The notes beneath the pieces were generated by a model. It had not been told where the DNA came from. It saw nothing but the letters and a program-made list of their open reading frames with translations, and did no database searches. From Candidatus Tayloriibacteriota bacterium (GTDB lineage Bacteria; Patescibacteriota; Minisyncoccia; Phycocordibacterales; PALSA-1337), in assembly GCA_016215455.1 (NCBI GenBank), contig JACRJP010000002.1, positions 2,809 to 66,808 of the forward strand: DNA of 64,000 bases. Reading direction: 5' to 3'. Position 1 is the stretch's first letter, and every line of letters begins with the position of its first letter. A program made the position numbers and the translations under genes. Below are positions 8,839 to 35,456 of the stretch, one piece after another.

Positions 8839-8839
8839 A

Positions 8840-9463: not shown

Positions 9464-9466
9464 ATA

Positions 9467-10075
9467 TTAATCTTCAATAGAGATTTGTCCTGTTTTACGA
9501 ACTACAATATTTTTAAGATTACCTTGAGGAGACACCAATACTATTTTAACATACGACAACACCCCACTATTACCTGTGATAATAGCATCGGGATCAGGAC
9601 GTCGAAACGCAATACTCACATTTGGTGTGGTACTTGTACATCCTGAATTGGTACATATTTTCTGAACCACAATTCCTCTCTTGAGAACATACTTTGAAAT
9701 TGCTTCATCTACTGGAGTAGATGTATATATAGAGTTATTTTCAGTTGAATCAACAAAGAAGATAAACTGAGAGTTAGAACCACCTGTTGAACTTAGATAC
9801 ACACCGTATGCACACTGAAAGGTATCCGTACTGTTCACAGAGGAACAACTCGAAGGTGCTTCCTTTACGTTTAATCCGTACGTCTGTGCCTGACGAATTG
9901 TGAGAGCTACATCATATGCAAGATTTGTCACAATAATCCCCTGAGTCGCGTTTCCGTATTTAACAGCAAGAAATGCGGTCACAAAAGCAAAAATAGCAAC
10001 TGTGACCATGAGTTCAATCAAAGTGAACCCTCGAGATACCACAGACTGTGTTTTTTTATTGGAAAAAAAGCGCAT
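9467..10075 (-). CDS. prepilin-type pseudopilin (FimT/GspH-like)
   Basis: Motif SRGFTLIELMVTVAIFAF. I trimmed the start to the internal ATG at 10075 so that the overlap with pilD is only about 19 nt. Confidence 0.6.
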   Translation of the reverse strand: MRFFSNKKTQSVVSRGFTLIELMVTVAIFAFVTAFLAVKYGNATQGIIVTNLAYDVALTIRQAQTYGLNVKEAPSSCSSVNSTDTFQCAYGVYLSSTGGSNSQFIFFVDSTENNSIYTSTPVDEAISKYVLKRGIVVQKICTNSGCTSTTPNVSIAFRRPDPDAIITGNSGVLSYVKIVLVSPQGNLKNIVVRKTGQISIED

Positions 10076-10847
10076 TGAGGAACAAGAAATCAAGATGTCC
10101 AAACCATGCAATATACATGCCGAGAATGAGGTATGGAGCAAACGGAACCTCGACATTCCTAATTGTACGCTTTTTCTTGAGTATCACCAAGTAGATAACA
10201 CTGAAGACTGCCCCGAGCCAGAACGCCATAAAAATCCCTGATACACCGAAGACAAGTCCGGCAAGCCACCCAAGACTTACCACAAGTTTTGCATCACCAA
10301 ATCCAATCCATCGGCCTTTTGAAACAAACCAAAGTCCACCAAATACAGCAAAGAAGATAATACCCGACAAGAAATCAATGAGTTGAGGGAGATGGAGAAG
10401 TGACTCCCCTCCAACGAATAAACCTATGAATGAAACTGCCATGAGAGTAAATGAGAGGCTATCGGGAATAATCTTATGTCGTAGATCGTACACAAAAATA
10501 ACAATAAGAATAGCAGCAGCTATGGCATGAATAACAAAATACAGCATTGCGGGAAGTGTAAAAGGTTCGATACTGTAATACAGCAGTACAAAGAGAACTG
10601 CAGTAGCAGTTTCTACCATTGGATATTGATACGAGATATCACTTCGACAACTCCTACAACGTCCTCGGAGAAAAACAAAACTTACTAACGGTAGTAGTTC
10701 ATACCACTCGAGTTTTTTTGCACAAGAAAAGCATTGTGATCGTCCTCCTATCCCCTTACTACTGTTGTATCTTAAAATAACAACATTCAAAAAACTTCCG
10801 ATGATCAGACCAAATATTGCTACAAATACTCCGATAATGACCAGCAT
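10056..10847 (-). CDS. pilD: prepilin peptidase / N-methyltransferase (A24 family)
   Basis: 263-aa polytopic membrane protein. Has the N-terminal Zn tetracysteine (QCFSCAKK...RGRCRSCRSD) and the conserved catalytic aspartates of peptidase A24. Confidence 0.85.
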   Translation of the reverse strand: MLVIIGVFVAIFGLIIGSFLNVVILRYNSSKGIGGRSQCFSCAKKLEWYELLPLVSFVFLRGRCRSCRSDISYQYPMVETATAVLFVLLYYSIEPFTLPAMLYFVIHAIAAAILIVIFVYDLRHKIIPDSLSFTLMAVSFIGLFVGGESLLHLPQLIDFLSGIIFFAVFGGLWFVSKGRWIGFGDAKLVVSLGWLAGLVFGVSGIFMAFWLGAVFSVIYLVILKKKRTIRNVEVPFAPYLILGMYIAWFGHLDFLFLNALFFQ

Positions 10848-11369: not shown

Positions 11370-11407
11370 AATGATGGGTAATATTATACCTATAGTATAT
11401 CATAGCC

Positions 11408-12980: not shown

Positions 12981-13031
12981 GAGTAAATATTATTTTTTAA
13001 TACACTAAGTATATCATGCTTGAATAAAATC

Positions 13032-13068
13032 AAAAAAAACACCCGCCATACGACGGGTGTTTTTTTTG
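13032..13068. terminator. bidirectional rho-independent terminator
   Basis: A8 run, stem ACACCCG/CGGGTGT with an 8-nt loop, then T8 run. Confidence 0.7.
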
Positions 13069-13088
13069 ACAACAAACTAATTGAAATA

Positions 13089-13529: not shown

Positions 13530-13688
13530 ATGTATTACTAATTTTAATATCTAAAGTGTAAGTCTACCTTACCTTTGTTCATAATTATAGCAAGATTAAC
13601 GGCCATTAATAGTAAAAAAGCTGTATTCTGTGGATAACTAGGGATTTCACCATATTTTATGGTGCATCGTCATCTTTTTTCTAACAAA

Positions 13689-14897
13689 CTACTGAGCAGC
13701 TGAGATGTTATAGATAGGAACAAGCACAGCAGCAAGAAGGAATGCTACACCGAGACCGAGCATAACAATCATAAGTGGCTCAATAAGATCAACAAGTGCA
13801 TCAACAGCCGTCTCTACTTCACGTGCATAGAATTTAGCGAGAGTCTTTAGGATGTTACCGAGTTCTCCTGTTTCTTCACCCACCTTAATCATTTGAATCA
13901 TGATACCTGGGATTTGATCGTTACCTGACAATGCCTCAGAAACAGGTTTACCTCCCTTCACTGCCTCTACGGCGCCTGCAATAATAGAGTTATATATCTT
14001 GTTATCAATCACTGATGAGGTGAGTTCAAGAGCTCGGATCATAGGAATACCCGATACAAGCATAGTATTCATGTTATCTGACAAACGTGAGAGATATAGC
14101 TTCTTATAAAGAGTACTGATATATGGAACAGAAAGCTTAAATCGATCAAACGCAATACTTCCTTCTGGAGTCTTCACAAAACGATAGATAAGGTACCCTA
14201 TAATCGCTGCAATACCAACAATAACGAAACCGTAGTGTACCAAACCGTTACTAATAGCGAGAACGACTTTGGTGTAGATAGGAATCTCCTGACCTGATTC
14301 AACAATAATTGCACTGATCTTTGGAATCACAACAGTAAACATGAGTACCATCACAGTAACGAATGTAAATACCACGAAAGCTGGGTAAATAAGAGCGCTC
14401 TTTGCCTTTGAGGTAAGTTCATATGAACGATCAAGGTAGTCAGCAAGATAATTGAATGTTTCATCAAGACGTCCTGATTCTTCACCTGCCTTTACCATAC
14501 TGATATAAAATTCAGAGAACACTGTTGGATGTTTTCCAAGAGAAGTTGAGATAGAACTACCACCCTGAAGATCATCTGCAATAGTTGCGAGTTTTACTCG
14601 AAGGAGTTTGTTCTCTGTTTCCTCCCCAAGAAGACGGAAGACTCGAAGCGCAGAGACCTGCGCCTGAAAAAGTGTTGAGAGTTGTCGTGACAAGATAACA
14701 ACATCCTTATTTGACACTCGCTCAAACCACGAAATATTTACATCAAAAATAGACTTCTTTCCTCCTGTTTCGTGAATATTTGTGATGACAAAGCCTCGTC
14801 GCTGGAGTGATGCAATAGCAATGTCGACATTAACAGCATCAATTGATCCTGTTTTTTTCTCTCCTTGAGCATCGACAGCTTGGTAAGTAAAAAGCAT
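13689..14897 (-). CDS. pilC: type IV pilus inner-membrane platform protein (GspF/PilC family)
   Basis: 402 aa with two GspF-like repeats and three TM segments. Confidence 0.85.
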   Translation of the reverse strand: MLFTYQAVDAQGEKKTGSIDAVNVDIAIASLQRRGFVITNIHETGGKKSIFDVNISWFERVSNKDVVILSRQLSTLFQAQVSALRVFRLLGEETENKLLRVKLATIADDLQGGSSISTSLGKHPTVFSEFYISMVKAGEESGRLDETFNYLADYLDRSYELTSKAKSALIYPAFVVFTFVTVMVLMFTVVIPKISAIIVESGQEIPIYTKVVLAISNGLVHYGFVIVGIAAIIGYLIYRFVKTPEGSIAFDRFKLSVPYISTLYKKLYLSRLSDNMNTMLVSGIPMIRALELTSSVIDNKIYNSIIAGAVEAVKGGKPVSEALSGNDQIPGIMIQMIKVGEETGELGNILKTLAKFYAREVETAVDALVDLIEPLMIVMLGLGVAFLLAAVLVPIYNISAAQ

Positions 14898-14902
14898 GGT
14901 GT

Positions 14903-15964
14903 TTATAACATTCTATCAAGAGTCTTAGGATTGAGCGAGTGTTGATATGCACTTTCTGCCGTAATTTCCCCTGCTCGAACAAGATCAGCGAGACATCGGT
15001 TCATATCGATCATACCTTCATTCGAACTTGTTTCAACAATAGTATTGATTTCATGAATACGTTTTTCACGAATGAGATTTGAAACAGCATTATTTGCAAT
15101 CAAAAGTTCGTATGCAGGGATAAGACCTCCTGATACTCGTGGAATAAGTCGTTGTGAAAAGATACCCGTAAGACTTCCTGCGAGCTGTACTCGAATCTGA
15201 TCCTGTTGTCCTGGTGGGAATGAGTCAATGATACGGTTAATGGTTTGTGAAGCATTATTCGTATGGAGTGTTGAGAAAATGAGGTGGCCAGTTTCAGCAG
15301 CTGTTACCGCTGTTGCCATAGTTTCGATATCTCGCATTTCACCAATAAGAGCAACGTTCACATCCTGACGAAGCATTCCAACAAGAGCTGTATGAAAATC
15401 CGGTGTATCAAAACGAACTTCTCGTTGATCGATAATCGACTTCTTTGATTCGTACATATACTCAACAGGATCTTCAATAGTAATGATATGCTCAGCTCGT
15501 GTCTGATTAATCATTTCAAGCATAGCTGCCAATGTGGTCGTCTTTCCTTGACCGATAGGTCCTACCACAAGAAAGAATCCCTGCTGTTTACGAGTGAATG
15601 TTTCAAGAATTGGAGGAAGATTAAGATCTTGAAGTGTCTTAATTGTTTTAGGAATCAAACGAAGTGCGACAGAAATAGCACCCTGACGATAAAAAGCATT
15701 TCCTCGAAAACGAGCGACACTCCCTACCGCATATGAGAAGTCCACTTCACGAAGCTCTTCAAATCGAGCTTTATTTTCTTTTGAAAGGAGCACATCGAGA
15801 AATCCATGAATATCCTTTTGAGTTAATTCAGTCTTTTTCACTAATGGCAAAAGTTGACTTGATACTCGAATGACTGGATGACGTCCTTCAGCAATGTGGA
15901 GATCAGAAGCCCCTTCTTTGAGCACCATATCTACCATTTCTTCAAGTTCTCTTTTGTAGTCCAT
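14903..15964 (-). CDS. pilT: type IV pilus retraction ATPase (PilT family)
   Basis: 353 aa. Walker A GPIGQGKTTT, Asp box, Walker B and a His box (TLHTN). Length is typical of PilT. Confidence 0.85.
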   Translation of the reverse strand: MDYKRELEEMVDMVLKEGASDLHIAEGRHPVIRVSSQLLPLVKKTELTQKDIHGFLDVLLSKENKARFEELREVDFSYAVGSVARFRGNAFYRQGAISVALRLIPKTIKTLQDLNLPPILETFTRKQQGFFLVVGPIGQGKTTTLAAMLEMINQTRAEHIITIEDPVEYMYESKKSIIDQREVRFDTPDFHTALVGMLRQDVNVALIGEMRDIETMATAVTAAETGHLIFSTLHTNNASQTINRIIDSFPPGQQDQIRVQLAGSLTGIFSQRLIPRVSGGLIPAYELLIANNAVSNLIREKRIHEINTIVETSSNEGMIDMNRCLADLVRAGEITAESAYQHSLNPKTLDRML

Positions 15965-15968
15965 ATGA

Positions 15969-16364
15969 TTAACCTTTTATTTTCTTATAAATCTTATTCA
16001 CCTCTTCAAGCACCTCCGATGGAATGGTTGAGGCTTTGATGATATATCCATCAACATGTAATTTCTGAGCTCGTTCAACATCAGAAGGAGCACTTTGATT
16101 AGTGAGCATGATCACCACAGCATTCGGAGCAAGTTTCTCTTTTCGAATTACCTCGAGAAGTTCAACCCCGTCCATTCCTGGCATTACCACATCAAGAAGA
16201 ATAATATCGGGTAACAAACCTCCATCTCGAAGTACTTTCAGTGTTTCTTCAGGCCCTGCTGCACAATGTACGTCATACCCATTCTTCGAAAACTTCAATG
16301 AGTACATATCAAGAAGGAATTTATCATCATCAACAAGAAGTAGAGAAATTGGTTTTGTAGACAT
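15969..16364 (-). CDS. single-domain response regulator (CheY-like receiver, PilH/PilG-like)
   Basis: 131 aa. Motifs LLVDDD, ...LLDVVMPGMDG, ...DGYIIK. Confidence 0.75.
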   Translation of the reverse strand: MSTKPISLLLVDDDKFLLDMYSLKFSKNGYDVHCAAGPEETLKVLRDGGLLPDIILLDVVMPGMDGVELLEVIRKEKLAPNAVVIMLTNQSAPSDVERAQKLHVDGYIIKASTIPSEVLEEVNKIYKKIKG

Positions 16365-16415
16365 AAAAGTTCTGAGTAATCTTATTATACTATAACTTCG
16401 ACCAAATTAATGACA

Positions 16416-18146
16416 TTACAGTGTATTAACTTCCTCAAATGGGATAAGTCCTTTAAATGCTTTTAACATAGCATCCTCTTTCATAGTAAGCATTCCCTTT
16501 TGACGAAGAATTTTTGAGATCTCAAGCTCTGTTGGACTTTTCATAAGAACTGATTCAATTTCTTTGTCCATCATAAACACTTCAAACACTGCCTGACGAC
16601 CTCGAGTTCCCTTTGGACATTCAGGAGTTGGTACCGCTTCATATACAGTCTTACCGATTTCAATTTGACTTCGAAATTCTGCAGGAAAATCACCGAATTG
16701 TTTGTCGACAATCGCTTTAATAGCACCTTCAACAGGAATAGGTTTTCCACCACCAGGACAGAGAGTACGAACGAGACGTTGAGCCATGGCACAGATAAGA
16801 GTTGGTGCAATAAGGTACGGATCAACTCCCATATCAATAAGACGAGGAATAACACCTGCAGCGTTATTGGTGTGAAGTGTAGAGAATACCAAGTGACCGG
16901 TAAGAGCAGCCTGTACAGCAAGCTGTGCAGTTTCTTTATCTCGAATTTCTCCCACCATGATCACATCAGGGTCCTGACGAAGTGTTGTACGGAGACCGGA
17001 CGCAAATGTATATCCAATTTCAGGGTGCACTTGTGACTGTGCAATTCCTTCCATGTTGTATTCCACTGGGTCTTCAAGTGAAAGTACGTTCATTGCCTCT
17101 TTATCAACCTCATTGAGCATGGAATATAGAGTTGTTGATTTACCGGAACCTGTTGGACCAGTAATCAAAATGAGACCGTACGGACGATGAATAGCGTCTC
17201 GAACACGAGCAAGATTGGTTGGAGTAAGCCCAACATCATCAAGTTTCTTTACCCCCTTATCAGGGTCAAGAATACGCATCACCACCTTTTCTCCGTAGTA
17301 TGCGGGGAATGTTGAGACTCGGAAGTCGATACGACGTCCTTCAATACGAGCAGAGAAACGTCCGTCTTGTGGCTTTCTCTTTTCATCAAGCTTCATGTTT
17401 GAAAGCACCTTAATACGAGCAACTACAGCGCTATGCACTTTCATTGGAAGAACAAGACTTGTATTAAGCACACCATCAACACGGAAACGAACTCGAAACT
17501 TATCATGCATTGGCTCAATATGCACATCGGATGCATTACCTTCTGTTGCATAACGAACAATCGTTGCCACAATTTTTACCACCGGAGCGTCTTCGATGAT
17601 AAGAGGTTCTGCTCCGCCAGCACTTCCAGGAATTGGCGCACCCTTTGGTGGAGTTACTGTTGAATCACTATCGACAGAGAGAACAGTTTCAAGTTCAGAG
17701 AGAGCTTTTGACACTTCCCCTGTAATACCTTTGTACATTTCAATGACCTTTTCAAAGTCTTGTGTACTGATAATAAAAATTTTATATGGAACATTTTTCT
17801 TTGCTGCAATAAAGTTCAAAGCATCACGTGCCTCAATGTTATCAGGATCAACAATACCAACTTCAAGTGCTCCATCTTTAAGAGCAAGTGGTACAAACTT
17901 ATAATGAATAGCTGATTCTTCAGGAATATACTCGAGAATTTCAAAAGGAATACTGATGTCTTGAAGAGCTCGAATTGGCACATTCATAAACTCCCCTTTT
18001 GCTATAAGAATATCTTCTGGTTTGACCCCACGATCAATCAAAGCTTTTTCAAGGGTAACATCCCCAGAGGCCGTCATCTTGCGGACCTCCTGCACATCTT
18101 CCTTTGTTATGACATTTTTCTTTAGCAGGATATCGACGACACTCAT
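16416..18146 (-). CDS. pilB: type IV pilus assembly ATPase (GspE/PilB family)
   Basis: 576 aa. N-terminal T2SSE_N-like domain, Walker A GPTGSGKSTT, His box TLHTNNA. Confidence 0.9.
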   Translation of the reverse strand: MSVVDILLKKNVITKEDVQEVRKMTASGDVTLEKALIDRGVKPEDILIAKGEFMNVPIRALQDISIPFEILEYIPEESAIHYKFVPLALKDGALEVGIVDPDNIEARDALNFIAAKKNVPYKIFIISTQDFEKVIEMYKGITGEVSKALSELETVLSVDSDSTVTPPKGAPIPGSAGGAEPLIIEDAPVVKIVATIVRYATEGNASDVHIEPMHDKFRVRFRVDGVLNTSLVLPMKVHSAVVARIKVLSNMKLDEKRKPQDGRFSARIEGRRIDFRVSTFPAYYGEKVVMRILDPDKGVKKLDDVGLTPTNLARVRDAIHRPYGLILITGPTGSGKSTTLYSMLNEVDKEAMNVLSLEDPVEYNMEGIAQSQVHPEIGYTFASGLRTTLRQDPDVIMVGEIRDKETAQLAVQAALTGHLVFSTLHTNNAAGVIPRLIDMGVDPYLIAPTLICAMAQRLVRTLCPGGGKPIPVEGAIKAIVDKQFGDFPAEFRSQIEIGKTVYEAVPTPECPKGTRGRQAVFEVFMMDKEIESVLMKSPTELEISKILRQKGMLTMKEDAMLKAFKGLIPFEEVNTL

Positions 18147-18157
18147 ATGTAGTTTAA

Positions 18158-18508
18158 TTATCTACCCGCAGCTGGAACACGTGGAGTTGAAGTAGTAGCA
18201 GAACGAGATGAAGATCCCAGTGGTGCGAATGGATTCACACGACCAATAGGGATTGCTGGAACTTCGATAGTATAGTCAACGAGTACCTTGTATTCGAGAG
18301 ATTCGAACAAAGAATTATCAATTTTAAGATTATTAAGTTGTACAAGAAGAGCTGCAATATCATCTCCTCCTGCAATAGAACCCTGAACCTCACCTGGAAT
18401 CATTGTGAAAGCTGGTTCATTGTTTCCAGAGAAACCAAAATAAGCGGCAACAGCTGCTGCTATCAGAATGACGATGATTATAATTGTTTTTGTATTTGAT
18501 CCGTTCAT
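18158..18508 (-). CDS. small signal-anchored protein in the pilus operon (possible PilP-like)
   Basis: 116 aa with one N-terminal TM helix. Located between the pilB and PilO-like genes. Confidence 0.4.
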   Translation of the reverse strand: MNGSNTKTIIIIVILIAAAVAAYFGFSGNNEPAFTMIPGEVQGSIAGGDDIAALLVQLNNLKIDNSLFESLEYKVLVDYTIEVPAIPIGRVNPFAPLGSSSRSATTSTPRVPAAGR

Positions 18509-18509
18509 G

Positions 18510-19112
18510 TTAGTTTTGGCGAAGCCAATATGTCTTAAGCTCTACAGAAAAGTCATACACATTTGAATCAGTTGGAGCAAATGAAATCTTTGTTATATCA
18601 AGAATACGAAGACTAAGTTCAAGATCGTGGAGAATATTAATAAAATTCTCATATGTCGTAGTGACATTAAAATTCATGGTCAAAGCATCATACTTTGAAA
18701 GAGATGCTGGGGCTTGCTGCTGAATACTTGGTGCTGGAGAACCAGACACACTTGCAGCACCTCCTGTTGCAGGTGCTGTCTTAGTTGAATTTCCTCCTCC
18801 TGTACGAACATTCTTGATCGAAACTCCTCGACGAGAAGTAATACCGTTGATATCGATAATCAAACGTATGTTATCAATATGATCAGGTAGCAATTTCTTG
18901 AGTCGTTCACGGTCCACCTCAGCAATACTGTTGTATGCATTAATAACTTGATCTCGTTTTTTGAGAAGCTCTTTTGAATCTTCAAGTGTCTTGCTGAATT
19001 GAGCATTTTCAGCCATGGCAGCACGCACCTTGTCATACTGACCGACAGTAAAGGTAAAGAAGATACCTATCGCGACTATTATGAGTACTAATGGAAGAAT
19101 GTTTCGGTTCAT
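18510..19112 (-). CDS. PilO-like pilus assembly protein
   Basis: 200-aa bitopic protein with a TM helix, a coiled-coil segment and a C-terminal domain. Its position follows the PilN-like gene. Confidence 0.55.
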   Translation of the reverse strand: MNRNILPLVLIIVAIGIFFTFTVGQYDKVRAAMAENAQFSKTLEDSKELLKKRDQVINAYNSIAEVDRERLKKLLPDHIDNIRLIIDINGITSRRGVSIKNVRTGGGNSTKTAPATGGAASVSGSPAPSIQQQAPASLSKYDALTMNFNVTTTYENFINILHDLELSLRILDITKISFAPTDSNVYDFSVELKTYWLRQN

Positions 19113-19117
19113 AATGG

Positions 19118-19837
19118 TTATTGACGAGTAGATGTTGCAGTTGTTGTTGCAGACGGAGTCGACACATCCGTAGGTGATGTTCCTCCACTCAAAGCACTTT
19201 CGATATATTTCTTAAATGAAATTTCTTGTGGATCAACTCCAGCACTGAAAGAAAATCCTACTGTCCCCTTATCATCGATACCGAAATCAGATACAACAGG
19301 ATCCTTGAGTACCTTACTTCCCCCGAAGACATCAGACTGGAATGCAAGCACAGGAAGAGATGTTCCTTCACCCTTCATACTCATAACAATTCTATCCTTA
19401 ACATTTGTTGGAAAAGTAACATCAAATGACTTAAATCGTACACTTGTTGTTGTTTCTCTCCCTATAACATCAAAGATATTCGCCACAGCGAGGTGGTTGT
19501 TGATTAATTCTCTCGAGAGATTTATTTTTGCATTGAAGCGCTCGAGAAACTTAATGTCTGTACCGAACTGTTCACGATTGTGTGTAATCTGTTTTTTATA
19601 ACTCTCCTGTTGCTTTTGTAATATTTTTGTCCAAGCAAATACTCCACCCGCCATAGCAACTGAGATAATGAAAACAAGAACACCAATGATACTAAAAAGA
19701 CTAACTGATTGGTGGATCTGTTGTCCTGTCTCCGGGACAAGTGGCTTTTTCGGTATGAATGATGTTTGAAATTTGGTTTCCATGGAAAAAAGGAACTGTA
19801 GTGAGTATATTATAGCCCAGAACAAACCTTCCGACAC
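19118..19837 (-). CDS. PilN-like pilus assembly protein (start may be the internal ATG near 19783)
   Basis: Bitopic protein with a Ser/Thr-rich tail. Lies immediately downstream of pilM. Confidence 0.55.
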   Translation of the reverse strand: MSEGLFWAIIYSLQFLFSMETKFQTSFIPKKPLVPETGQQIHQSVSLFSIIGVLVFIISVAMAGGVFAWTKILQKQQESYKKQITHNREQFGTDIKFLERFNAKINLSRELINNHLAVANIFDVIGRETTTSVRFKSFDVTFPTNVKDRIVMSMKGEGTSLPVLAFQSDVFGGSKVLKDPVVSDFGIDDKGTVGFSFSAGVDPQEISFKKYIESALSGGTSPTDVSTPSATTTATSTRQ

Positions 19838-19858
19838 TAGTAAAGTGTGTATATCTCG

Positions 19859-20980
19859 CTACTGAATTTCAGAAAGACGGCGTAGAGCAATACCTATAGC
19901 GACCGCGAATTCAGGACCGGCAGTTTTGAATTGTTCAGCAAGGAATGCAGGTGTTTCGAGCTTACCAAAAGGATCTGCGTATACAACATTGTTCTGGAAA
20001 CTCGTCTTAGCAAGTTCAGTAAAACCCTTAAGAAGTACTCCTCCCCCTGTAAGGATGATTTTACTGATATCTTTATTGTATTTTCTTTGATAGCCGAGCA
20101 TCACACGATTCGCTTCATAAAAAACATAGTCGAGAGTAAGACTAATAACGTCAGTTAATTCCTTATGTTCAGGTCCTCCCGTCAAACCATACACTCGCTT
20201 CATATTTTCTGCTTCAGTAACTGGAATACTCAGAGATTTTGAAATAGCTAATGTAATATCTTGTGATCCTCGATTAATAATATGAGATGTTCGCAAAAGC
20301 CCTCGCTCGATAATGTAGAGTTTTGTGGTACTTGCTCCCATATCTACCACCATATTTGCCTGAATACCTTGATCAAGTACTGCACGGAGTGAACTGAAGA
20401 GCTCTATCTCAAAGAATGATGATTGAAGTCCTGTCTTTGCCATAAGGCCTTGGTAGTTAGCGATAGATTCGTTGTGTATCGCAACAACAAGAACTTCACT
20501 TGTTCCTTTGTTGACTGGTGGTTGTGATCCAGCTGGAAGCGAAGTATCTTCAATTGCATCTTCTTTAGGAATTATTGACCAATCAAGGAGAACTTCAGTA
20601 ATTGGTACAGGAATATACTTTCGAGCTTCGAGAGTAATAATCTCTCCAATCTGTTTACTATCAGTAGCAGGGACATTAATAAAACTAATAAGGCTCGATG
20701 AGAGTGGTAATGCGGTACCACATGTCTTTGTTGTTGTTTTTGCTTCACGCAAAATATCAGTAAGCGCCTGAGCTGTTTTTTCGAGAGTAAGGTTAGTTGC
20801 ACGTCCAATTTCAGTGCCTCCATAAGGACCGAGAGCAAGTTCACCATAGGTTTCAAGAACAGCTCTTCCTTTCTTTTTCTTGATTTGTACAATCTTAATC
20901 GCTGACGAACCGATATCAATACCAAGAACACTTTGTTCCTTTTTGCCGAATATAGAAAAGATGTTCTTTAGAAAATCCAT
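19859..20980 (-). CDS. pilM: type IV pilus assembly protein PilM (actin-like ATPase fold)
   Basis: 373 aa. N-terminus GIDIGSSAIKIVQIKK... with FtsA/actin-like phosphate-binding motifs. Confidence 0.8.
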   Translation of the reverse strand: MDFLKNIFSIFGKKEQSVLGIDIGSSAIKIVQIKKKKGRAVLETYGELALGPYGGTEIGRATNLTLEKTAQALTDILREAKTTTKTCGTALPLSSSLISFINVPATDSKQIGEIITLEARKYIPVPITEVLLDWSIIPKEDAIEDTSLPAGSQPPVNKGTSEVLVVAIHNESIANYQGLMAKTGLQSSFFEIELFSSLRAVLDQGIQANMVVDMGASTTKLYIIERGLLRTSHIINRGSQDITLAISKSLSIPVTEAENMKRVYGLTGGPEHKELTDVISLTLDYVFYEANRVMLGYQRKYNKDISKIILTGGGVLLKGFTELAKTSFQNNVVYADPFGKLETPAFLAEQFKTAGPEFAVAIGIALRRLSEIQ

Positions 20981-21021
20981 ACAGAATATAGTCTAGTATA
21001 TCATAACTATTTGAGACTTTC

Positions 21022-21705
21022 TTGAGTATTCCTTCATGGTCAATATTTTATACTGCTCCCATGAAAAATATAGTGGCACATGTAGTAAACTTCATTTTCC
21101 CTAATAAAATCTCACAATGTGGTCTTACCATCAATACCCTACTTACCCAAGAACGCTATTGTTTTGAAGAACTATATCCCAAGATATACAGCATATGTCG
21201 TTACAAGAACACATTAATCCGCAACTTGATTCACCAAGTAAAGTTTAAGGGCGATGAAACGACAGCAGAAATCATAGCATCGTGCATAGCGCGACACATA
21301 GACACAATACTTGAGTCGCTATTAAGAAATCACCCTCCTGATCACAGATACAAAGTTATACTCATTCCCATACCTTCGAGTCATCGACGAAGAATGTCTC
21401 GTGGATGGAATCAGTGTGAGATAATTGCACGCCATATCCCCTCATGGAGCGTGTACCGCCCTCTCGTCGCTCTTCATATTCTCAAACGTTCTGAGACCAC
21501 CTCGTTTCAGAAAAAATTATCTCGCCACGAACGTCTCCAGGCTCAGAAAAATTCATTTACTGCATTTCCTCACCACTCTACTGATGAGACCATTGTAATT
21601 GTCATTGATGACATCGTCACAACTGGTGCGACACTTAGAGAAGCAATTACAACCTTAGAAAAAGGTGGCTATAGGAATGTATTCGGTATAGCGTTTGCTC
21701 ACTAA
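21022..21705 (+). CDS. comFC: ComF family protein (phosphoribosyltransferase-domain competence protein)
   Basis: C-terminal PRTase motif VIVIDDIVTTGATL. Transcribed divergently from pilM. Confidence 0.7.
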   Translation: MSIPSWSIFYTAPMKNIVAHVVNFIFPNKISQCGLTINTLLTQERYCFEELYPKIYSICRYKNTLIRNLIHQVKFKGDETTAEIIASCIARHIDTILESLLRNHPPDHRYKVILIPIPSSHRRRMSRGWNQCEIIARHIPSWSVYRPLVALHILKRSETTSFQKKLSRHERLQAQKNSFTAFPHHSTDETIVIVIDDIVTTGATLREAITTLEKGGYRNVFGIAFAH

Positions 21706-21709
21706 ACGA

Positions 21710-23122
21710 TTACTGAACACTGTCGACAATCGAAAAATAGTCATCACTTTGATCACACTTTGATGTACCAGCTAAACACACTTCAATCTTATAGTTGCCT
21801 TTAGGGATCGGTTTATTATCAATATCGGTACCGACGATCCAGTTATAGATTGTACTAACGGCTACATTCTTATCGAGAATTGCGGCTCGATACGTACAAT
21901 CGCGTGGTGGAAGTATCGTAAGTGAAGGTGACGTTACATCAGCAGTATCACTTTGCGTTGTAACACAGAGGGATGTGTTTAGGTACAAATCCAGTTTAGT
22001 TGTCGTAGTGGCATTCGTAGGAACCCAACTTATTTGAGGAGTAGACTTGAGAACCCACTGTTCACCACCATTCGGAGACGTAAGGCGTACTGATACAGGT
22101 TTTTCAGAGGTTCGCACATTTACCGTTGTGCTTGTTTGAGTAATAAGCCCTGAAGCATTACGTACTGTAAAAACAATCTTATACACACCCGCCTTTTCAT
22201 AGCTATGTGTAAATGTTGATGTTTGTACAAAAGGTTGAGGAGTTGGATTTGCAGCCGAGGTTCGAAGAAGTGTCGGAAGCGATACTGGTTCATCACCCCA
22301 TGTGACCATATAACTTAAGCTTGTATTTTGAGGATCAGAAGCATGAACAACCCATGTTCCTAATTGATCAACACTAAGCTCTACAGGAGCATCAAGACGA
22401 TCAATTACTGGAGATTTGATTGCGGTATTTGAACTAATAGTAAAAGGTCGACTTGTTGCACATACGGTAGATGTACCATTTTGACATATCTGAATTGTGT
22501 ACACACCATCAGATGGTGGAGTACCACCTAAGTTACTGATAAAGTCACCGACACGCCAATTATACAAATGCTGATCTACACTGATATTCTGAGCAATTAC
22601 GTATGAGACATTTGGCTGACATACATATCCTTGAGGACAAGCAGGAGCAACAGGAGCAAGAATAATATGGCCATAGGTCGCACGAACGAATGCAGGGGCA
22701 TTCCAAAGAATTGTTTCGGTTGAACCTCGTTTCCAATTCTCACCACCTCGAGGAGAAGTGATCTTAAAAGACATCTCCTGAGATTCATTATTTAACTTAG
22801 CTCGAGTAAGAGGACCGACGTATCCTGTACTCGCAACACCAACCGAAGCTTGGAATTTTTCAACTGCACGTTTTGTTTGTTCACCAAAGTACCCCTTTGG
22901 AGTAGCATTTGAACTCACCGAAGGTATATCGAATCCTTGATTAATAAGAAGAGTCTGTAATTCAGCTACATCAACATTTGATGAGCCAATCGACATGTCT
23001 TTTTCAAATACATAATTTCCTGCCGATACACTTGAGGTCAAAGAAAGAATTGCAGCCACCACAAATACCGGTAATAATTTTTTCATAGTCATACAGTAAG
23101 TATACACAAAAACGAACGACAC
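21710..23122 (-). CDS. secreted protein with an N-terminal peptidoglycan-binding-like domain and internal repeats
   Basis: Signal peptide. PG_binding_1-like motif (VDVAELQTLLINQGFDI...GYFGEQTKRAVEKFQ). Contains a repeated ~40-aa module (YNWRVGDF...YTIQICQNGTS and YNWIVGTD...YKIEVCLAGTS). Confidence 0.6.
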   Translation of the reverse strand: MSFVFVYTYCMTMKKLLPVFVVAAILSLTSSVSAGNYVFEKDMSIGSSNVDVAELQTLLINQGFDIPSVSSNATPKGYFGEQTKRAVEKFQASVGVASTGYVGPLTRAKLNNESQEMSFKITSPRGGENWKRGSTETILWNAPAFVRATYGHIILAPVAPACPQGYVCQPNVSYVIAQNISVDQHLYNWRVGDFISNLGGTPPSDGVYTIQICQNGTSTVCATSRPFTISSNTAIKSPVIDRLDAPVELSVDQLGTWVVHASDPQNTSLSYMVTWGDEPVSLPTLLRTSAANPTPQPFVQTSTFTHSYEKAGVYKIVFTVRNASGLITQTSTTVNVRTSEKPVSVRLTSPNGGEQWVLKSTPQISWVPTNATTTTKLDLYLNTSLCVTTQSDTADVTSPSLTILPPRDCTYRAAILDKNVAVSTIYNWIVGTDIDNKPIPKGNYKIEVCLAGTSKCDQSDDYFSIVDSVQ

Positions 23123-23185
23123 ACATATTTTCTACTTCCCCACTTTTTCATACAAAGACCGAACATTCGAGTCTCATTTCTTTAA

Positions 23186-23274
23186 GGCGGAGAGAGCGAG
23201 ATTCGAACTCGCGGTTCCAATTAAGGAACGGCGGTTTAGTAAACCGCTGGTTTAAACCACTCACCCATCTCTCC
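23186..23274 (-). tRNA. class II (long variable arm) Ser-like tRNA; the anticodon reads ACT by my parse
   Basis: Acceptor GGAGAGA/TCTCTCC with discriminator G. Anticodon stem GCGGT/ACCGC with loop TTACTAA. Variable arm GTTCC-TTAATT-GGAAC. T-arm GCGAG TTCGAAT CTCGC. A partial CC 3' end is encoded. Confidence 0.6.
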
Positions 23275-23347
23275 ATGTACGCTATCCTACAACATACTGA
23301 GATTTTTTGCGATAGTACATGAGTACAATCAACCAAAATAAAAACCA

Positions 23348-23384
23348 CCTCATCAATGATGAAGTGGTTTTTATTTGACTTACA
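23348..23384. terminator. rho-independent terminator downstream of the SWIB gene
   Basis: Stem of about 14 bp (AAAACCACCTCATCA / TGATGAAGTGGTTTT, one mismatch) followed by TTTTTATTT. Confidence 0.55.
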
Positions 23385-23390
23385 ACTTAT

Positions 23391-23639
23391 TTATGAAAGG
23401 TGTCCAGAAACAAGCTTTGTCATTTCAAACATGTTTACCATAGACTTTCCTCCAAAAACTTTCTTAAGCTTTTCATCAGCATTGATGTTTCGCTTATTCT
23501 TTTCGTCCTGGAGCTTATTTTCCTTGATGTAAACCCAGATCTGCTTAACTACCTCACCTCGTGACATAGGTCCTGCACCGATAACAGCCGCTAATTCCGG
23601 ACTGATCTTCATTGGCTTCGAAAGTGCTGCATTTGGCAT
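23391..23639 (-). CDS. SWIB/MDM2-domain protein
   Basis: LSPELAAVIG...MSRGEVVKQIWVYIKENKLQDEKNKRNINADEKLKKVFG...MFEMTKLVSGHL tracks the SWIB consensus closely. I trimmed the start to the internal ATG at 23639. Confidence 0.7.
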   Translation of the reverse strand: MPNAALSKPMKISPELAAVIGAGPMSRGEVVKQIWVYIKENKLQDEKNKRNINADEKLKKVFGGKSMVNMFEMTKLVSGHLS

Positions 23640-23761
23640 TGTCTTTATGATATTTACTTGTATGGGGTATAGTATAGCGCTTTTAAGGGATTTTGGAAGG
23701 AGGGCAAATAAACTACTCAATATCCAGACCTGAAGTTAAGATGTACGGACCATAACTCTAC

Positions 23762-24190
23762 CTACGCATCCCAATAATTCTTACCGGTCTTGTATGCTTC
23801 TATATAACTAGGAATTGAACTAAAGAGTGGCTCGGGTAATTCATTGATATCATACCAATTCCATTCTTCAATTTTTTCTGGTTCCATAATCTCCGGTTCA
23901 CCGCTTTTCCAATCTGCAATGAGACCAATATCTACGTAGTGTTTTGGTGCATACGTTTTGAGATTCATGAGTCGTAGAAAACGAACATTGTGAATCTGTA
24001 TTCCAGTCTCTTCTAGAGTCTCTCGCTTAGCACAGTCTTGAAAGGATTCCATATACTCCATATGACCGCCCGGCCAAGCATACTCTCCTTCTCCGTGAGA
24101 ACCCTTACGTTTTCCGAGCAAGACCTTGTTATCTTTAATAATCATTACACCAATACCAACTTTTGGTCTTTCCTCGTGTGACATAGTCAA
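23762..24190 (-). CDS. NUDIX hydrolase
   Basis: Nudix box GGHMEYMESFQDCAKRETLEETGI. Confidence 0.8.
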   Translation of the reverse strand: MTMSHEERPKVGIGVMIIKDNKVLLGKRKGSHGEGEYAWPGGHMEYMESFQDCAKRETLEETGIQIHNVRFLRLMNLKTYAPKHYVDIGLIADWKSGEPEIMEPEKIEEWNWYDINELPEPLFSSIPSYIEAYKTGKNYWDA

Positions 24191-24255
24191 ATTATAACCT
24201 AATCACTATTTCTTAGATACTTGAATCTACCAATAACAACCACCTCATCTTTAAT

Positions 24256-24882
24256 TTAACAAATATACTCACATCTAAGGATTTCCATAGCATCCTGGAC
24301 CTGACCAAACAGTGGAAACAGTCCCTGTCGTTTTGGCTCCTTCTGTTCCAGGTGGAATATCAATATTCGCAGCAGCTGAAGAAACACCGATGCTTGTTCT
24401 GCCACTACTACCAATACAAAAAATCCGTTTTTCCCTGGGAGATAGGCCATAATTGACCAAACTTTTGTGGAGTCCCAGTTTGTTCCATTCACTCCATTAT
24501 ATAAAATATCATTTCGTACTGATCCAACTGTATTTACAATACTCTTACACAAATCTATACCCTGGTTTGCAAAATTTGAAGCTGAAGATACAAATGGAGA
24601 TACTGTCGTATCAACTGATGTCTCTCCAGTACAAAGACGATACCCACTACCAACACCTGTTGTATTCCTCCATGCTCCCCGATTAAAATTTGAGTATGTA
24701 TTTTTTTCTGAAAACTCTAGAGCATGGAGGGTTGCTAATTGTCTCACTTCTTGCATAATTTTTGCATCTTTTGCTTTATCACGAGCCGAGTTCAGACCTG
24801 CAAGGACTATACTACTAAACAGTCCGATGATTGATATAACTACCAATAATTCGATGAGAGTAAAACCTTTGTTTAAATTCAT
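24256..24882 (-). CDS. prepilin-type protein, probably frameshifted near 24418-24432
   Basis: N-terminus KGFTLIELLVVISIIGLFSSIVLAGL. The last ~55 aa of the main frame look non-proteinaceous. An alternative frame (ORF 24275..24460) encodes a pilin-like Gly/Thr-rich tail with a Cys pair. Confidence 0.55.
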   Translation of the reverse strand: MNLNKGFTLIELLVVISIIGLFSSIVLAGLNSARDKAKDAKIMQEVRQLATLHALEFSEKNTYSNFNRGAWRNTTGVGSGYRLCTGETSVDTTVSPFVSSASNFANQGIDLCKSIVNTVGSVRNDILYNGVNGTNWDSTKVWSIMAYLPGKNGFFVLVVVAEQASVFLQLLRILIFHLEQKEPKRQGLFPLFGQVQDAMEILRCEYIC

Positions 24883-24930
24883 TCTAAAATTGTAACATAC
24901 TAAATACTACATCTGTATCATTTTGGATAA

Positions 24931-25545
24931 TTAAAGTGAAGTGTGTAGGTTGGAAGCATAAATATCAAACGTCATAATATTATCGCTATAATTGACATGT
25001 TTACTAATTTTGCTTCCTTCTGTCACAATAACATCTTTAAATATTCCTTTTAGTAATTTCTCTATTTGTTCTATCGGGTATGAGTATCTCGGTACATCAA
25101 TTTCTTTCCTATTGAAAATCCCACCCTTAGTATTGTAGCTAAGCAACAGGAATCCATCTGACCTAAGTCCTTCTTTTATTTTTTGAATAAGGAAAGATAA
25201 TTCCTCTGGATTAAGATACTGGATTACTCTTGAGACAATAATTGCCTGATATTGTGAAGCTTTATAGTGATATTCAAGGATATCTGATTTTTGAAAATAG
25301 ATTTTGTTTTGTAAATGAATTGGTAGTTTTTCTTTCCACTTTAAATCTGTCACATCGAAACATGCTATTTCACATCCTCGCTCAGCAAGAAAAATCGAGT
25401 TTCTTCCACTTCCACAGCCGACGTCAAGTACCCAATCTCCTGGCTGTAGTCTACCTATATATTTTGAAACCAAAATACTTGGAATGAGTGTTTTAATCTC
25501 AAATTTCTTCTCTTTCCACACTTGTTCCCACTTGTGTTTTTTCAT
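24931..25545 (-). CDS. class I SAM-dependent methyltransferase
   Basis: Motif I LDVGCGSGRNSIFLAERG plus an acidic-loop motif. Confidence 0.75.
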   Translation of the reverse strand: MKKHKWEQVWKEKKFEIKTLIPSILVSKYIGRLQPGDWVLDVGCGSGRNSIFLAERGCEIACFDVTDLKWKEKLPIHLQNKIYFQKSDILEYHYKASQYQAIIVSRVIQYLNPEELSFLIQKIKEGLRSDGFLLLSYNTKGGIFNRKEIDVPRYSYPIEQIEKLLKGIFKDVIVTEGSKISKHVNYSDNIMTFDIYASNLHTSL

Positions 25546-25585
25546 ACGAAATTAGGTACCCGGATCATGTCGATACTTTATTTTT

Positions 25586-25675
25586 TGGCGGAATCGGAGG
25601 GATTCGAACCCTCGAGACCTGTTAGGGCCTGCCTCTTTAGCAAAGAGGTATGTTAGACCACTCCACCACGATTCC
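25586..25675 (-). tRNA. tRNA-Ser (anticodon GCT), class II, CCA encoded
   Basis: Acceptor GGAATCG/CGATTCC with discriminator G. Anticodon stem CCTCT/AGAGG with loop TTGCTAA. Long variable arm. T-loop TTCGAAT. 3' CCA present. Confidence 0.85.
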
Positions 25676-26561
25676 AGATGAACGCATTCTTGCATATTTT
25701 GCCCTTTTTATCAAAAATAAGGCTATACTCAATACCGTGAAAAATTCTACCTTTATCAAAAAAATTTGGGATTACTCTGCTCAACATCGTCGTGATATGA
25801 GTTGGAGAAAAAACATTACCCCATATCGTATTGTTGTCTCTGAAATCATGCTGCAACAAACTCAAGCTGATCGAGTTGCTAAAAAGTTTGATGGATTTAT
25901 TCGACGTTTCCCTTCATGGAAAGCTCTTGCACTTGCTCCAACTAAAGATGTTCTCGAGGAATGGCAAGGACTCGGATATAATAGACGTGCACTCAATCTA
26001 CAAAAATGCGCACGTGCTGTTGTAGAGCAACATAAAGGTAAACTTCCCCAAACACCCGAAGAACTCATCGAACTTCCAAGTATCGGACCGAATACTGCTG
26101 GTTCGATCCTAGCCTTTGCATTCAACATTCCCCACCCTTTTATAGAAACAAATATTCGTTCGGTATATATCCATCATTTCTTTAGCAAGAAATCTACAAC
26201 TACAAAAATATCTGACAAAGAAATTCTTCAAAAGGTTACCGAAACACTCGATCAAGAAAACCCTCGAGAATGGTACTACGCTCTCATGGACTATGGTACT
26301 CATCTCAAAAAACTACACATAAATCCAAGTCGTAAGAGTAAGCATCACAAATCCCAATCAAAATTTAAAGGTTCGCATCGAGAATTACGCGCGCACATCC
26401 TTAAATTACTCATTAAAGAACCCTATTCATATACCAATCTCATCACCACCCTTCAGACATGGAGAAAAACTTTATCAATCGATGAATCCGAGCTTGCAAT
26501 TTCAGAACTTGAACAAGAAGGTTTTATTATGTTAAATAAAAATTTATATACTATCGTCTAG
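25650..26561 (+). CDS. HhH-GPD DNA glycosylase (MutY/Nth-like); the C-terminus has no 4Fe-4S cysteine cluster; the start is probably downstream of 25675
   Basis: LQQTQADRV..., the HhH-GPD motif LPSIGPNTAGSILAFAF and a catalytic-Asp context. The first ATG overlaps tRNA-Ser on the opposite strand. Confidence 0.75.
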   Translation: MLDHSTTIPDERILAYFALFIKNKAILNTVKNSTFIKKIWDYSAQHRRDMSWRKNITPYRIVVSEIMLQQTQADRVAKKFDGFIRRFPSWKALALAPTKDVLEEWQGLGYNRRALNLQKCARAVVEQHKGKLPQTPEELIELPSIGPNTAGSILAFAFNIPHPFIETNIRSVYIHHFFSKKSTTTKISDKEILQKVTETLDQENPREWYYALMDYGTHLKKLHINPSRKSKHHKSQSKFKGSHRELRAHILKLLIKEPYSYTNLITTLQTWRKTLSIDESELAISELEQEGFIMLNKNLYTIV

Positions 26562-26583
26562 AGAAATAACGTATAATGGGAAC

Positions 26584-27195
26584 ATGTCACCAACAATCAA
26601 ACAGCACAAGGTAGGTATCGCTGCTTTAGTCTTACTCCTTATTCTCGGATGTATATATGTAAGTCTACGTGATACAGCACAAAACAACGCGGTCTTCTGT
26701 ACTATGGATGCAAAGCAGTGTCCTGATGGTTCATACGTCGGTCGTGTTGGACCTTCGTGTGAATTCTCTCCTTGTCCTACCCCACCTCAAGTAACACAAA
26801 AGAAGATCGAGGCCGTACACCTTTCGGATGTTGTACCTGTCGCGACATCGTCTCTTCAAATATTTACTCCGGTACAACTCCCTAAAGCATCAGCAACAGT
26901 TCGCTATAGTGAGTTGGGTTTTCTTGCAGCTACAACAACTATCAAGCAATATCAAACTGTTGATTTTATTAATACATCAAATCATTCATTCTGGCCCGCT
27001 TCAAATGATCATCCTGGCCACACACTCTATCCAGAATTTGATGCACGTACCCCTATCACCACAGGAAACAAATTCACCTTCACCTTCAATGTTCCAGGTG
27101 TATGGAATTATCACAACCACCTCAAACCATCACAACACGGTGTCATTATTGTCACCCCTGTTCCAACAGCAACAAGTACAGGTGGCACCCTCTAA
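26584..27195 (+). CDS. hypothetical signal-anchored protein (possibly a cupredoxin-like beta domain)
   Basis: N-terminal TM helix followed by a His-rich beta-type C-terminal segment (HPGHTLYPEFD...NYHNHLKPSQHGVIIV). No defining motif. Confidence 0.45.
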   Translation: MSPTIKQHKVGIAALVLLLILGCIYVSLRDTAQNNAVFCTMDAKQCPDGSYVGRVGPSCEFSPCPTPPQVTQKKIEAVHLSDVVPVATSSLQIFTPVQLPKASATVRYSELGFLAATTTIKQYQTVDFINTSNHSFWPASNDHPGHTLYPEFDARTPITTGNKFTFTFNVPGVWNYHNHLKPSQHGVIIVTPVPTATSTGGTL

Positions 27196-27204
27196 CATTA
27201 CCCT

Positions 27205-29445
27205 ATGACATTCGAGACTCCTCTTCAGGACATCGTTCGTACTACGGAAGTCCAGAAGAAGGCTTTGGCTCGACTTGGTATTATCACTATTCGTGATATT
27301 CTCTATCACTTCCCTGTACGCTATGGTAATACATCTGAGACACAAAACATCGCCTCTCTAACAAAAAGCATTCCTGCTGTTATTTTTGGAAAAATATCCT
27401 CACTCAAAACAAGTAAAGGATTTCGATCAAAAATCCCAATGTCGACAGCGACCATTACCGATGATAGCGGGAGTATCAAAGTAGTATGGTTCAACCAACC
27501 CTACATTGCAAAGATGATAGCCGACAACAGTCTAGTACGTATTGAAGGTAAAGTAAGTCAACGACGACCTAAGGCACGTACATCGACTAATGAAACAGAA
27601 GATGTGGTCGAAGCACCTCAAGGTGAACTATATTTTTCAAACCCGAAAATAGAAAAGGTTGATACCGTACCAATTGGAGTTGGAGCATCACTGTTTGGTG
27701 ATCAAAGCATCGAACACACTCTCTATCCTGTATACCCAGAAACAAAAGGTATTACTTCAAATTGGCTCTACCATGCCCTGCAGAGAGTTTTGAAAACGGG
27801 AGTTCTCGAAACACTCACTGACCCTATTCCTGACGATATTCTTAAAAAATATAACCTCCCATCAATTACCACAGCATTCATTTGGATTCACACACCACTC
27901 AAGGAAAGTGATGCACTTGCCGCACGTAAACGTTTTGCATTTGAAGAAGTCTTTTTTATACAACTCGAAAAACAGCGGGCTCGAGCAGAGTATCAACAAA
28001 CAAAAGCATTCATCATTACACCCGATCAAAAACATGTTGATGATTTCATCAAACGGTTTCCCTTTGATGCAACCGATGCACAGAGAAAAGCAATTCACAC
28101 TATTGTTGCTGATTTCAAAAAAGGCTATGCCATGTCACGACTCCTTGAAGGTGATGTAGGATCAGGTAAAACAGCTGTTGCAGCAGCAACCGTTCATAGT
28201 GTTGCAACAACTCGTCCTAAGGGACAAAATTTTGGTAGTCTTCAAACAGCATACATGTGCCCCACTGAAATACTTGCAACTCAACATTTTGAATCATTTA
28301 TTCAATATTTTTCATATCTTGGTATTAATATTGGACTCATGACAGGTTCAGGGTGTCGTAAGTTTCCTTCAAAAATAAATCCAAAGGGTTGGACAAATAT
28401 TTCTCGTGCACAATTACTCAAATGGGTCGCTAATGGCGAGATTCCAATCCTCATTGGAACTCATGCACTCATCCAAAAAACAGTGAAGTTTAAAAACCTT
28501 GCATACGTCATCATTGATGAACAACATCGTTTTGGTACCGCACAACGTGCAAAATTAGTACGCAAAGATACTGATGGTCAGACTCGTGCACCTCACCTTC
28601 TTTCAATGACCGCAACCCCTATTCCTCGTACATTGGCCCTCACTGTATACGGAGACCTCGATCTCACCCTTCTTGATGTCATGCCCCATGGTCGTAAACC
28701 AATTATTACAGAAATCGTCGCCCCAAATACCGATCGAAAAGAAGTGTATGAAAAAGTACGCGCGCAACTCCGCGAAGGTCGACAAGCATATATTATTTGT
28801 CCACGTATCGATGAACCTGATCCTGACAAAGAATTACGAGTTGAAGCTCGATCAGTCACTGAGGAAGCAAAGCGACTCAAAAAAGAAGTCTTCAAGGAAT
28901 ATGAGATTGGAATTCTTCATAGCAAAATGACTCCTGCTGAAAAAGATAAAGCTATGATGGCATTCAAAAATGGTAAGACTCATATTCTCTGTGCAACATC
29001 TGTCGTTGAAGTTGGTGTGAATGTTCCTAATGCCAATACCATCATCATTGAAGGTGGTGAACGATTTGGTCTTGCTCAACTACATCAACTCCGTGGACGT
29101 GTCATTCGAGGAAATCATCAGCCCTACTGTTTTGTGTTTGCAGAAAGTATGAGTGATAAGACTCGTGATCGTCTCACTGCATTGAAGACTGCTAAAAATG
29201 GTTTCGAACTAGCCGAATATGACCTACAGTTCCGTGGTGCTGGAGTTTTGTACAGTGGTAAACAATGGGGTATCTCAGATGTTGCTATGGAAGCCCTCAA
29301 AAATATTAAAATGGTAGAAGCAGCACGATTCGAAGCAACAACCATTATCGAATCAGAAAAAACACCTGATAGTGCACTCGCTCTCTTCCCCTTCATTAAA
29401 GCTGAACTCGCACGTCGTGCCAACGATCAGATTCACTTTGAGTAA
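27205..29445 (+). CDS. recG: ATP-dependent DNA helicase RecG
   Basis: 746 aa. N-terminal wedge/OB domain, helicase motif I DVGSGKTAVAAA, motif II IIDEQHRFG, motif VI QLRGRVIRG. Confidence 0.9.
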   Translation: MTFETPLQDIVRTTEVQKKALARLGIITIRDILYHFPVRYGNTSETQNIASLTKSIPAVIFGKISSLKTSKGFRSKIPMSTATITDDSGSIKVVWFNQPYIAKMIADNSLVRIEGKVSQRRPKARTSTNETEDVVEAPQGELYFSNPKIEKVDTVPIGVGASLFGDQSIEHTLYPVYPETKGITSNWLYHALQRVLKTGVLETLTDPIPDDILKKYNLPSITTAFIWIHTPLKESDALAARKRFAFEEVFFIQLEKQRARAEYQQTKAFIITPDQKHVDDFIKRFPFDATDAQRKAIHTIVADFKKGYAMSRLLEGDVGSGKTAVAAATVHSVATTRPKGQNFGSLQTAYMCPTEILATQHFESFIQYFSYLGINIGLMTGSGCRKFPSKINPKGWTNISRAQLLKWVANGEIPILIGTHALIQKTVKFKNLAYVIIDEQHRFGTAQRAKLVRKDTDGQTRAPHLLSMTATPIPRTLALTVYGDLDLTLLDVMPHGRKPIITEIVAPNTDRKEVYEKVRAQLREGRQAYIICPRIDEPDPDKELRVEARSVTEEAKRLKKEVFKEYEIGILHSKMTPAEKDKAMMAFKNGKTHILCATSVVEVGVNVPNANTIIIEGGERFGLAQLHQLRGRVIRGNHQPYCFVFAESMSDKTRDRLTALKTAKNGFELAEYDLQFRGAGVLYSGKQWGISDVAMEALKNIKMVEAARFEATTIIESEKTPDSALALFPFIKAELARRANDQIHFE

Positions 29446-29449
29446 ATTG

Positions 29450-29523
29450 TGCGCCTGCTTGGATTCGAACCAAGGACCCCAAAGGTATAAGCTTTGTGCT
29501 CTAACCAACTGAGCTACAGGCGC
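29450..29523 (-). tRNA. tRNA-Ile (anticodon TAT, reads AUA)
   Basis: Cloverleaf GCGCCTG..CAGGCGC+A. Anticodon stem CAAAG/CTTTG with loop CTTATAC. T-loop TTCGAAT. Confidence 0.8.
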
Positions 29524-35426: not shown

Positions 35427-35456
35427 AAAAAATCACTCGTATGAGTGATTTTTTAT
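35427..35456. terminator. bidirectional rho-independent terminator
   Basis: A6 run, stem ATCACTC/GAGTGAT with loop GTAT, then T7 run. Confidence 0.6.

Follow-up and report, generated by a model that had tools for sequence, protein, structure and literature searches.

A frameshifted type IV pilin allele in Candidatus Taylorbacteria, probably the product of ordinary slippage in a short T tract

Type IVa pilins such as Thermus thermophilus PilA4 (6xxd), Neisseria PilE (1ay2) and Pseudomonas PilA are made with a class III signal marked by Gly at -1, Phe at +1 and Glu at +5, fold as a long N-terminal helix laid on a beta sheet and carry a C-terminal pair of cysteines, with PilD, PilB, PilC, PilT, PilM and PilO encoded nearby. 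The pilin considered here has the same signal and, in its intact form, the same helix, sheet and cysteine pair, and it is accompanied by the same machinery genes. Frameshifted genes of insect endosymbionts were reportedly found by Tamas and colleagues in 2008 to be rescued by transcriptional slippage at poly(A) tracts, and the present organism is likewise a symbiont-type bacterium, AT-rich and of reduced genome, in which a frameshift falls within a homopolymer of A/T. Efficient transcriptional slippage, as in the poly(A) runs of Buchnera and Blochmannia and in Thermus dnaX, needs roughly 9 nt. At contingency loci (poly-G tracts of Neisseria pilC and of Campylobacter, the 7C tract of Mycobacterium tuberculosis glpK) a change of one base in either direction toggles the gene; a 7-nt (7C) tract phase-varies in M. 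tuberculosis glpK, and the frameshift rate of a 7G tract has been measured in M. smegmatis at 3.1e-8 per generation (PMC10334774). Gonococcal non-piliated pilE variants resemble the allele described below in combining an intact N-terminal domain with a defective C-terminal part, and pilin of this kind cannot assemble fibres (Obergfell & Seifert 2016, PMC4877100), with the N-terminal 38 residues of Neisseria gonorrhoeae pilin still supporting transformation (PMC4877100). Those variants arise mainly by pilE/pilS recombination and concern the major pilin, whereas the case at hand is a single-base slippage in a probable accessory paralogue. Within the Patescibacteria, type IV pili mediate host binding and competition in the one cultivated lineage studied, accessory pili of Saccharibacteria contributing to both (PMC11623550).

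We analysed a window (the whole stretch of DNA under study) of 64,000 nt from an uncultivated groundwater-type bacterium, Candidatus Taylorbacteria, in which type IV pilins are encoded by several genes. A full set of type IV pilus genes occupies ~8308-20980 of the window, comprising the prepilin peptidase PilD (10056..10847, minus strand), PilC (13689-14897), PilT (14903-15964), a response regulator (15969-16364), PilB (16416-18146), PilO (18510-19112), PilM (19859-20980) and six pilin-like genes between 8308 and 13529. Both the peptidase, which would process the pilin of interest, and the assembly machinery that go with a type IV pilin are thus present. The frameshifted pilin gene stands apart from this set, 3.3 kb from PilM, with a methyltransferase gene and a NUDIX gene as neighbours, and it is one of at least eight pilin-like genes, its product being probably an accessory rather than the major subunit. 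A scan for promoters and terminators around it gave nothing above shuffle expectation. Farther along, at 35453-36373, a 306-aa pilin with a LamG (Laminin_G_3 / concanavalin-like lectin) domain recalls the lectin-like minor pilins reported for Saccharibacteria.

As encoded in the window the pilin ORF (24256..24882, minus strand) has 208 codons, and its product is identical to NCBI MBI5126179.1. It begins with MNLNKG followed by FTLIELLVVISIIG (in an alternative excerpt, MNLNKG followed by FTLIELLVVISIIGLFSS), and residues 1-27 (24802..24882, minus strand) form a class III prepilin signal consisting of the leader MNLNKG, which ends in Gly, a Phe at +1, a Glu at +5 of the mature chain and the hydrophobic alpha1-N stretch; PilD cleavage is predicted before F7. 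The preliminary description had called this N-terminus canonical, and the profiles bear it out: residues 1-27 score 32.6 bits against Pfam PF07963 (N_methyl; curated cut-off 21.2), and the N-terminus scores 33.9 bits against NCBIfam TIGR02532 (curated cut-off 16.3). Conservation in an alignment of 119 homologues points the same way, F7, T8, L9, I10, E11 and L12 being invariant. Codons 1-155 (24418..24882, minus strand) are in the frame of the family and cover the alpha1 helix, an alpha-beta loop in which C84 and C112 are invariant, and the opening strands of the beta sheet, in keeping with the alpha/beta fold of type IV pilins in which a long N-terminal helix lies on an antiparallel sheet. Codons F154-F155 coincide with a T6 homopolymer (minus strand; A6 on the plus strand, 24418..24423), the site of a 1-nt deletion. 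Beyond it the main frame runs on for 53 codons and a stop (24256..24417, minus strand), reading VLVVVAEQASVFLQ...RCEYIC (from the run onwards, VLVVVAEQASVFLQLLRILIFHLEQ...RCEYIC), whilst residues 156-202 of the intact pilin and its stop lie in a displaced frame (24275..24417, minus strand). This frame reads CIGSSGRTS...WSGPGCYGNP, includes C156 and C198 and has four predicted beta strands; it belongs to an overlapping ORF listed at 24275-24460, which contains FCIGSSGRTSIGVSSAAANIDIPPGTEGAKTTGTVSTVWSGPGCYGNP (longer excerpt, ...FCIGSSGRTSIGVSS...WSGPGCYGNP). With C156 and C198 out of frame, the T6 allele lacks the C-terminal disulphide (D-region) of a type IV pilin. Opposite the gene, a 142-codon antisense ORF (24467-24895, plus strand) has no support and most likely arises as a side effect of codon usage on the other strand.

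To decide which frame is real we relied on homologues of the repaired pilin, that is, the protein obtained when one T is added after the T6 run and both frames fuse. The fused product has 202 residues rather than the ~205 anticipated by the preliminary description, which was otherwise right that a single extra T yields a full-length pilin with its Cys pair. A search of a collection of 5.8 billion proteins with this query gave 3,252 relatives, of which the best 121 are counted here. The best match (P0001, 202 aa), which comes from another, independently assembled sample, shows 100% identity to the query at 100% coverage, and the second best (P0002, 208 aa) is the frameshifted product itself, deposited from a Candidatus Taylorbacteria MAG as MBI5126179.1. 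Five relatives with 51-55% identity can be aligned over their whole length and share YFCIGSSGRTSI...W.SPGC..NP; C84, C112, C156 and C198 are invariant in the alignment of 119 homologues; and the Cys after 'LPG..' together with the C-terminal 'GC..NP' is kept in 119/121 of the best homologues, the exceptions being P0002, which is the T6 gene, and P0074. The alternative-frame tail is matched by 38 of the 121 retrieved homologues, as would be expected of the typical pilin C-terminus first proposed for that frame, and the 53-residue main-frame tail by none of them except P0002. The suspicion that the last ~55 residues were out of frame is thereby borne out, and judged from these alignments the conservation of the displaced C-terminus is far beyond chance. 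We considered P0074 (L170 915-1496) as a parallel frameshift and rejected it, the pilin C-terminus being found in neither alternative frame. Its sequence thus does not point to a site prone to repeated frameshifting; it departs from the family right after the conserved 'LPGK', is without the C-terminal cysteine motifs, and is not a simple frameshift, a rearrangement of the gene or a chimera in the contig being possible causes.

Exact-protein look-ups, by which orthologue DNA was also retrieved, found the locus in three samples only: SRR12113407, SRR22388193 (L001) and SRR21713533 (L003). A literature search on these run accessions and on the protein accession gave no result. The Logan contig of SRR12113407 is 100.000% identical to the window across 12,882 nt and carries T6, and evidently represents the same population, whereas L001 and L003 carry T7 in strains ~99% identical to those with T6; close relatives therefore show no truncation. 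In these intact alleles the T7 run spells Phe-Phe-Cys (TTT TTT TGT). Compared with the window, the L001 contig has 38 substitutions and a single gap in 6,250 nt, the gap being the missing T at 24423. Two further sister-strain contigs over the pilus machinery (9,708 nt with 119 substitutions; 4,136 nt with 46) contain 0 indels. For the SRR22388193 strain the total over 15,958 nt is 157 substitutions and a single indel, that in the pilin tract. The frameshift therefore lies where the preliminary description had placed it, in the T6 run; an A5 run at 24428-24432 was also considered as the shift site and rejected, since the alignment to L001 puts the gap in the T run. Within the comparable 16 kb (13483-29486) the pilin tract is the only one of 26 homopolymers of at least 6 nt to differ in length, and the second homopolymer of the gene, an A7 on the coding strand (24701..24707, minus strand), is of equal length in 3/3 strains.

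Once the T is restored, the window gene equals the L001 nucleotide sequence at 609/609 nt, where ~3.7 differences would be expected at the local divergence (Poisson P = 0.025). Three substitutions set the L003 gene apart from these two; one is non-synonymous, so that L003 encodes a 202-aa pilin with one amino-acid substitution. Comparison of the alleles indicates that the intact T7 state is ancestral and T6 derived, and that the lesion is very recent, because the repaired gene is nucleotide-identical to the sister allele. A 1.19-kb segment over the pilin gene and part of the methyltransferase gene (24119-25308) has 0 substitutions relative to the SRR22388193 strain, its 6-kb surroundings averaging one per 164 nt; the strains may have recombined here recently, or the pattern may be due to chance.

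Taken together, the evidence makes it probable that T6 is an ordinary, very recent, strain-specific slippage deletion that knocked out an accessory pilin, with no programmed device involved. Replication slippage would have taken one T from T7 in the sampled lineage, so that translation departs from the conserved frame after F155 and the last 47 residues, about a quarter of the protein, are exchanged for 53 unrelated, largely hydrophobic ones. With these 47 residues go four predicted beta strands of the head domain and the presumed disulphide C156-C198. Both the prepilin signal and the alpha1 helix are retained, and PilD cleavage and membrane insertion of the product could still take place for that reason; the product is most likely non-functional and degraded because the pilin head cannot fold. 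By analogy with the gonococcal N-terminal fragment, the T6 product might conceivably keep some comparable activity. The T6 allele is disrupted relative to intact orthologues, yet further lesions or signs of relaxed constraint are absent, with 0 extra differences from the L001 allele in 609 nt, and it is at most a nascent pseudogene. The preliminary description had left three causes side by side (error, a decaying pseudogene or a phase-variable tract), a set that we keep and refine towards ordinary slippage as the likeliest; the lack of other lesions in the gene and the ~1.19 kb free of SNPs relative to L001 are also what an error or a fast reversible switch would be expected to produce.

The alternative that survives best, though we regard it as unlikely, is slipped-strand phase variation, with T7/T6 acting as a reversible ON/OFF switch for the accessory pilin. 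ON (T7) and OFF (T6) forms both occur among strains ~99% identical, the tract is the sole indel in ~16 kb, the gene otherwise matches the ON allele, and a surface pilin is a typical kind of phase-varying gene product. Tracts of 7 nt are also accepted as phase-variable in M. tuberculosis glpK (PMC10334774). The pilin tract is short, however, and the low rate measured for 7G in M. smegmatis (PMC10334774) speaks against a switch. The possession of a frame-switching tract with both lengths among near-identical strains is the sole hallmark of contingency loci found here: the pilin tract differs from them in being of 6-7 nt and A/T, unconserved in orthologues and ordinary for its genome, and it is known from assembled alleles only. 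The orthologues at 51-55% identity are intact and single-framed, with TAT TTT TGT, TAT TTC TGT or TAT CTT TGT at this site, and a long T-run is absent from 4/4 of those examined with DNA. In the window, A/T runs number 22 of 7 nt and 4 of 8 nt, exceeding i.i.d. expectation, so T7 runs are common across the genome; by its sequence the T7 run is unremarkable there, neither unusually long nor kept across orthologues, and nothing marks it as a selected contingency repeat. The pilin gene does contain two runs of at least 7 nt within its 609 nt, where the background density is ~0.4 per kb, a mild excess that is not compelling. The locus is carried by three samples only, T5 or T8 alleles were not found in the protein collection, and assembled contigs pass unbroken through the tract in 3/3 samples, which shows only that one tract length dominates per sample.

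A working T6/T7 switch in a Candidatus Taylorbacteria population that toggles a disulphide-bonded accessory pilin, possibly helped by weak mismatch repair, is a rather doubtful proposition. No mismatch-repair genes were seen among the large ORFs of the 64-kb window, which is part of the genome, and among the papers searched none described phase variation for the Candidate Phyla Radiation. If phase variation did occur, populations of this episymbiont-type bacterium would mix cells with and without the pilin, by which, for example, host attachment might be varied or pilus-specific phage escaped; mixed tract lengths, if seen in reads, would offer an initial indication that phase variation occurs in the Patescibacteria radiation. 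By analogy, the pilus roles described for Saccharibacteria offer a plausible selective context for strain-level loss or switching.

A sequencing or consensus error, in which the true genome has T7, the gene is intact and a T was lost in base-calling, assembly or polishing, appears rather improbable. Loss of a single base from a homopolymer is the commonest technical indel, and the repaired gene does equal a sister-strain allele. T6 is nevertheless given by two different pipelines (NCBI MAG and Logan), and its reproduction in the second assembly means that it is no assembler quirk; both T6 assemblies were probably built from the same reads, however, since 12.9 kb of them match at 100% identity, and this speaks for an error. 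Against it, 0/25 of the other homopolymers of at least 6 nt differ in the 16 kb comparable with sister strains, so that systematic homopolymer error of the long-read type is excluded, there is no other broken gene among the ORFs checked, and the MAG contig is 244,953 bp long, implying good coverage. We infer that T6 is a true state of the cells and not an error of the consensus.

Recoding, by which T6 would still yield full-length pilin through a -1 ribosomal slip or RNA-polymerase slippage, is very improbable: a P-site tRNA-Phe slipping by -1 on the second UUU re-pairs perfectly and brings UGU (Cys156) into the A site, an AGGGAA motif lies 8 nt upstream and a hairpin with an 8-bp outer stem begins 9 nt downstream, but A UUU UUU (zero frame GGA UUU UUU GUA) is not a canonical X XXY YYZ heptamer and allows perfect re-pairing for a single-tRNA slip only, the hairpin (MFE -23.5 kcal/mol, z = -1.53) is not significant, with 17/200 shuffles folding equally well, relatives do not share the two-frame layout, one frame serving in the sister strains and in every orthologue examined, and a run of 6 nt falls far below the ~9 nt or more on which rescue in insect endosymbionts depends, nothing here indicating such rescue. 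Were it true, peptides spanning ...GKNGFFCIGSSGR would be implied from a T6-only population; it seems rather that no recoding rescues the T6 allele.

Reproduction of T6, the very recent date of the lesion and the lack of conservation of the tract in orthologues thus tip the balance towards a genuine slippage mutation of the ordinary kind and away from a dedicated phase-variation device. The finding itself is real and had been correctly read, and the phenomenon behind it is, on this balance, an ordinary slippage mutation. Its main practical consequence is one of annotation: the 208 aa of MBI5126179.1 are chimeric, 155 of them being genuine pilin and the other 53 out of frame, and the entry is best handled as a frameshifted allele of a 202-aa protein. 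It is publicly named 'prepilin-type N-terminal cleavage/methylation domain-containing protein', like any normal protein of this type. Ordinary slippage at this site would also mean strain-level presence/absence variation of a functional accessory pilin within one Patescibacteria species.

The orthologues at 51-55% identity in four other Patescibacteria contigs are divergently oriented beside a DsbA-like thioredoxin gene and a VKOR gene (L164 2841-4600; L165 2795-4639; L166 2841-4594; L167 521-2319), whereas the pilin of the window species is flanked by the methyltransferase and NUDIX genes. A neighbourhood with DsbA/VKOR, a disulphide-forming pair, fits the four invariant cysteines; DsbA and VKOR homologues were absent from the 64-kb window, which is part of the genome. 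A family-alignment scan of genome and metagenome contigs with a generic N-terminal pilin motif as pattern returned 0 orthologues among the 160 loci listed.

Elsewhere in the window, two tandem pilin genes (13089-13529 and 12474-12980, minus strand) are identical over 89 nt in the parts that encode their N-termini. In each of two samples a Logan contig stops exactly at window position 13483, within this repeat, and these ends look like a repeat-induced assembly break rather than biological variation. On the minus strand at 44996-47902, a 968-aa ORF matches the TrwB type IV secretion coupling-protein domain weakly (E = 9e-6); its neighbours, the large ORFs at 48277-49551 and 52245-54290, have no Pfam match, and the region may be part of a Patescibacteria conjugation-like type IV secretion system.
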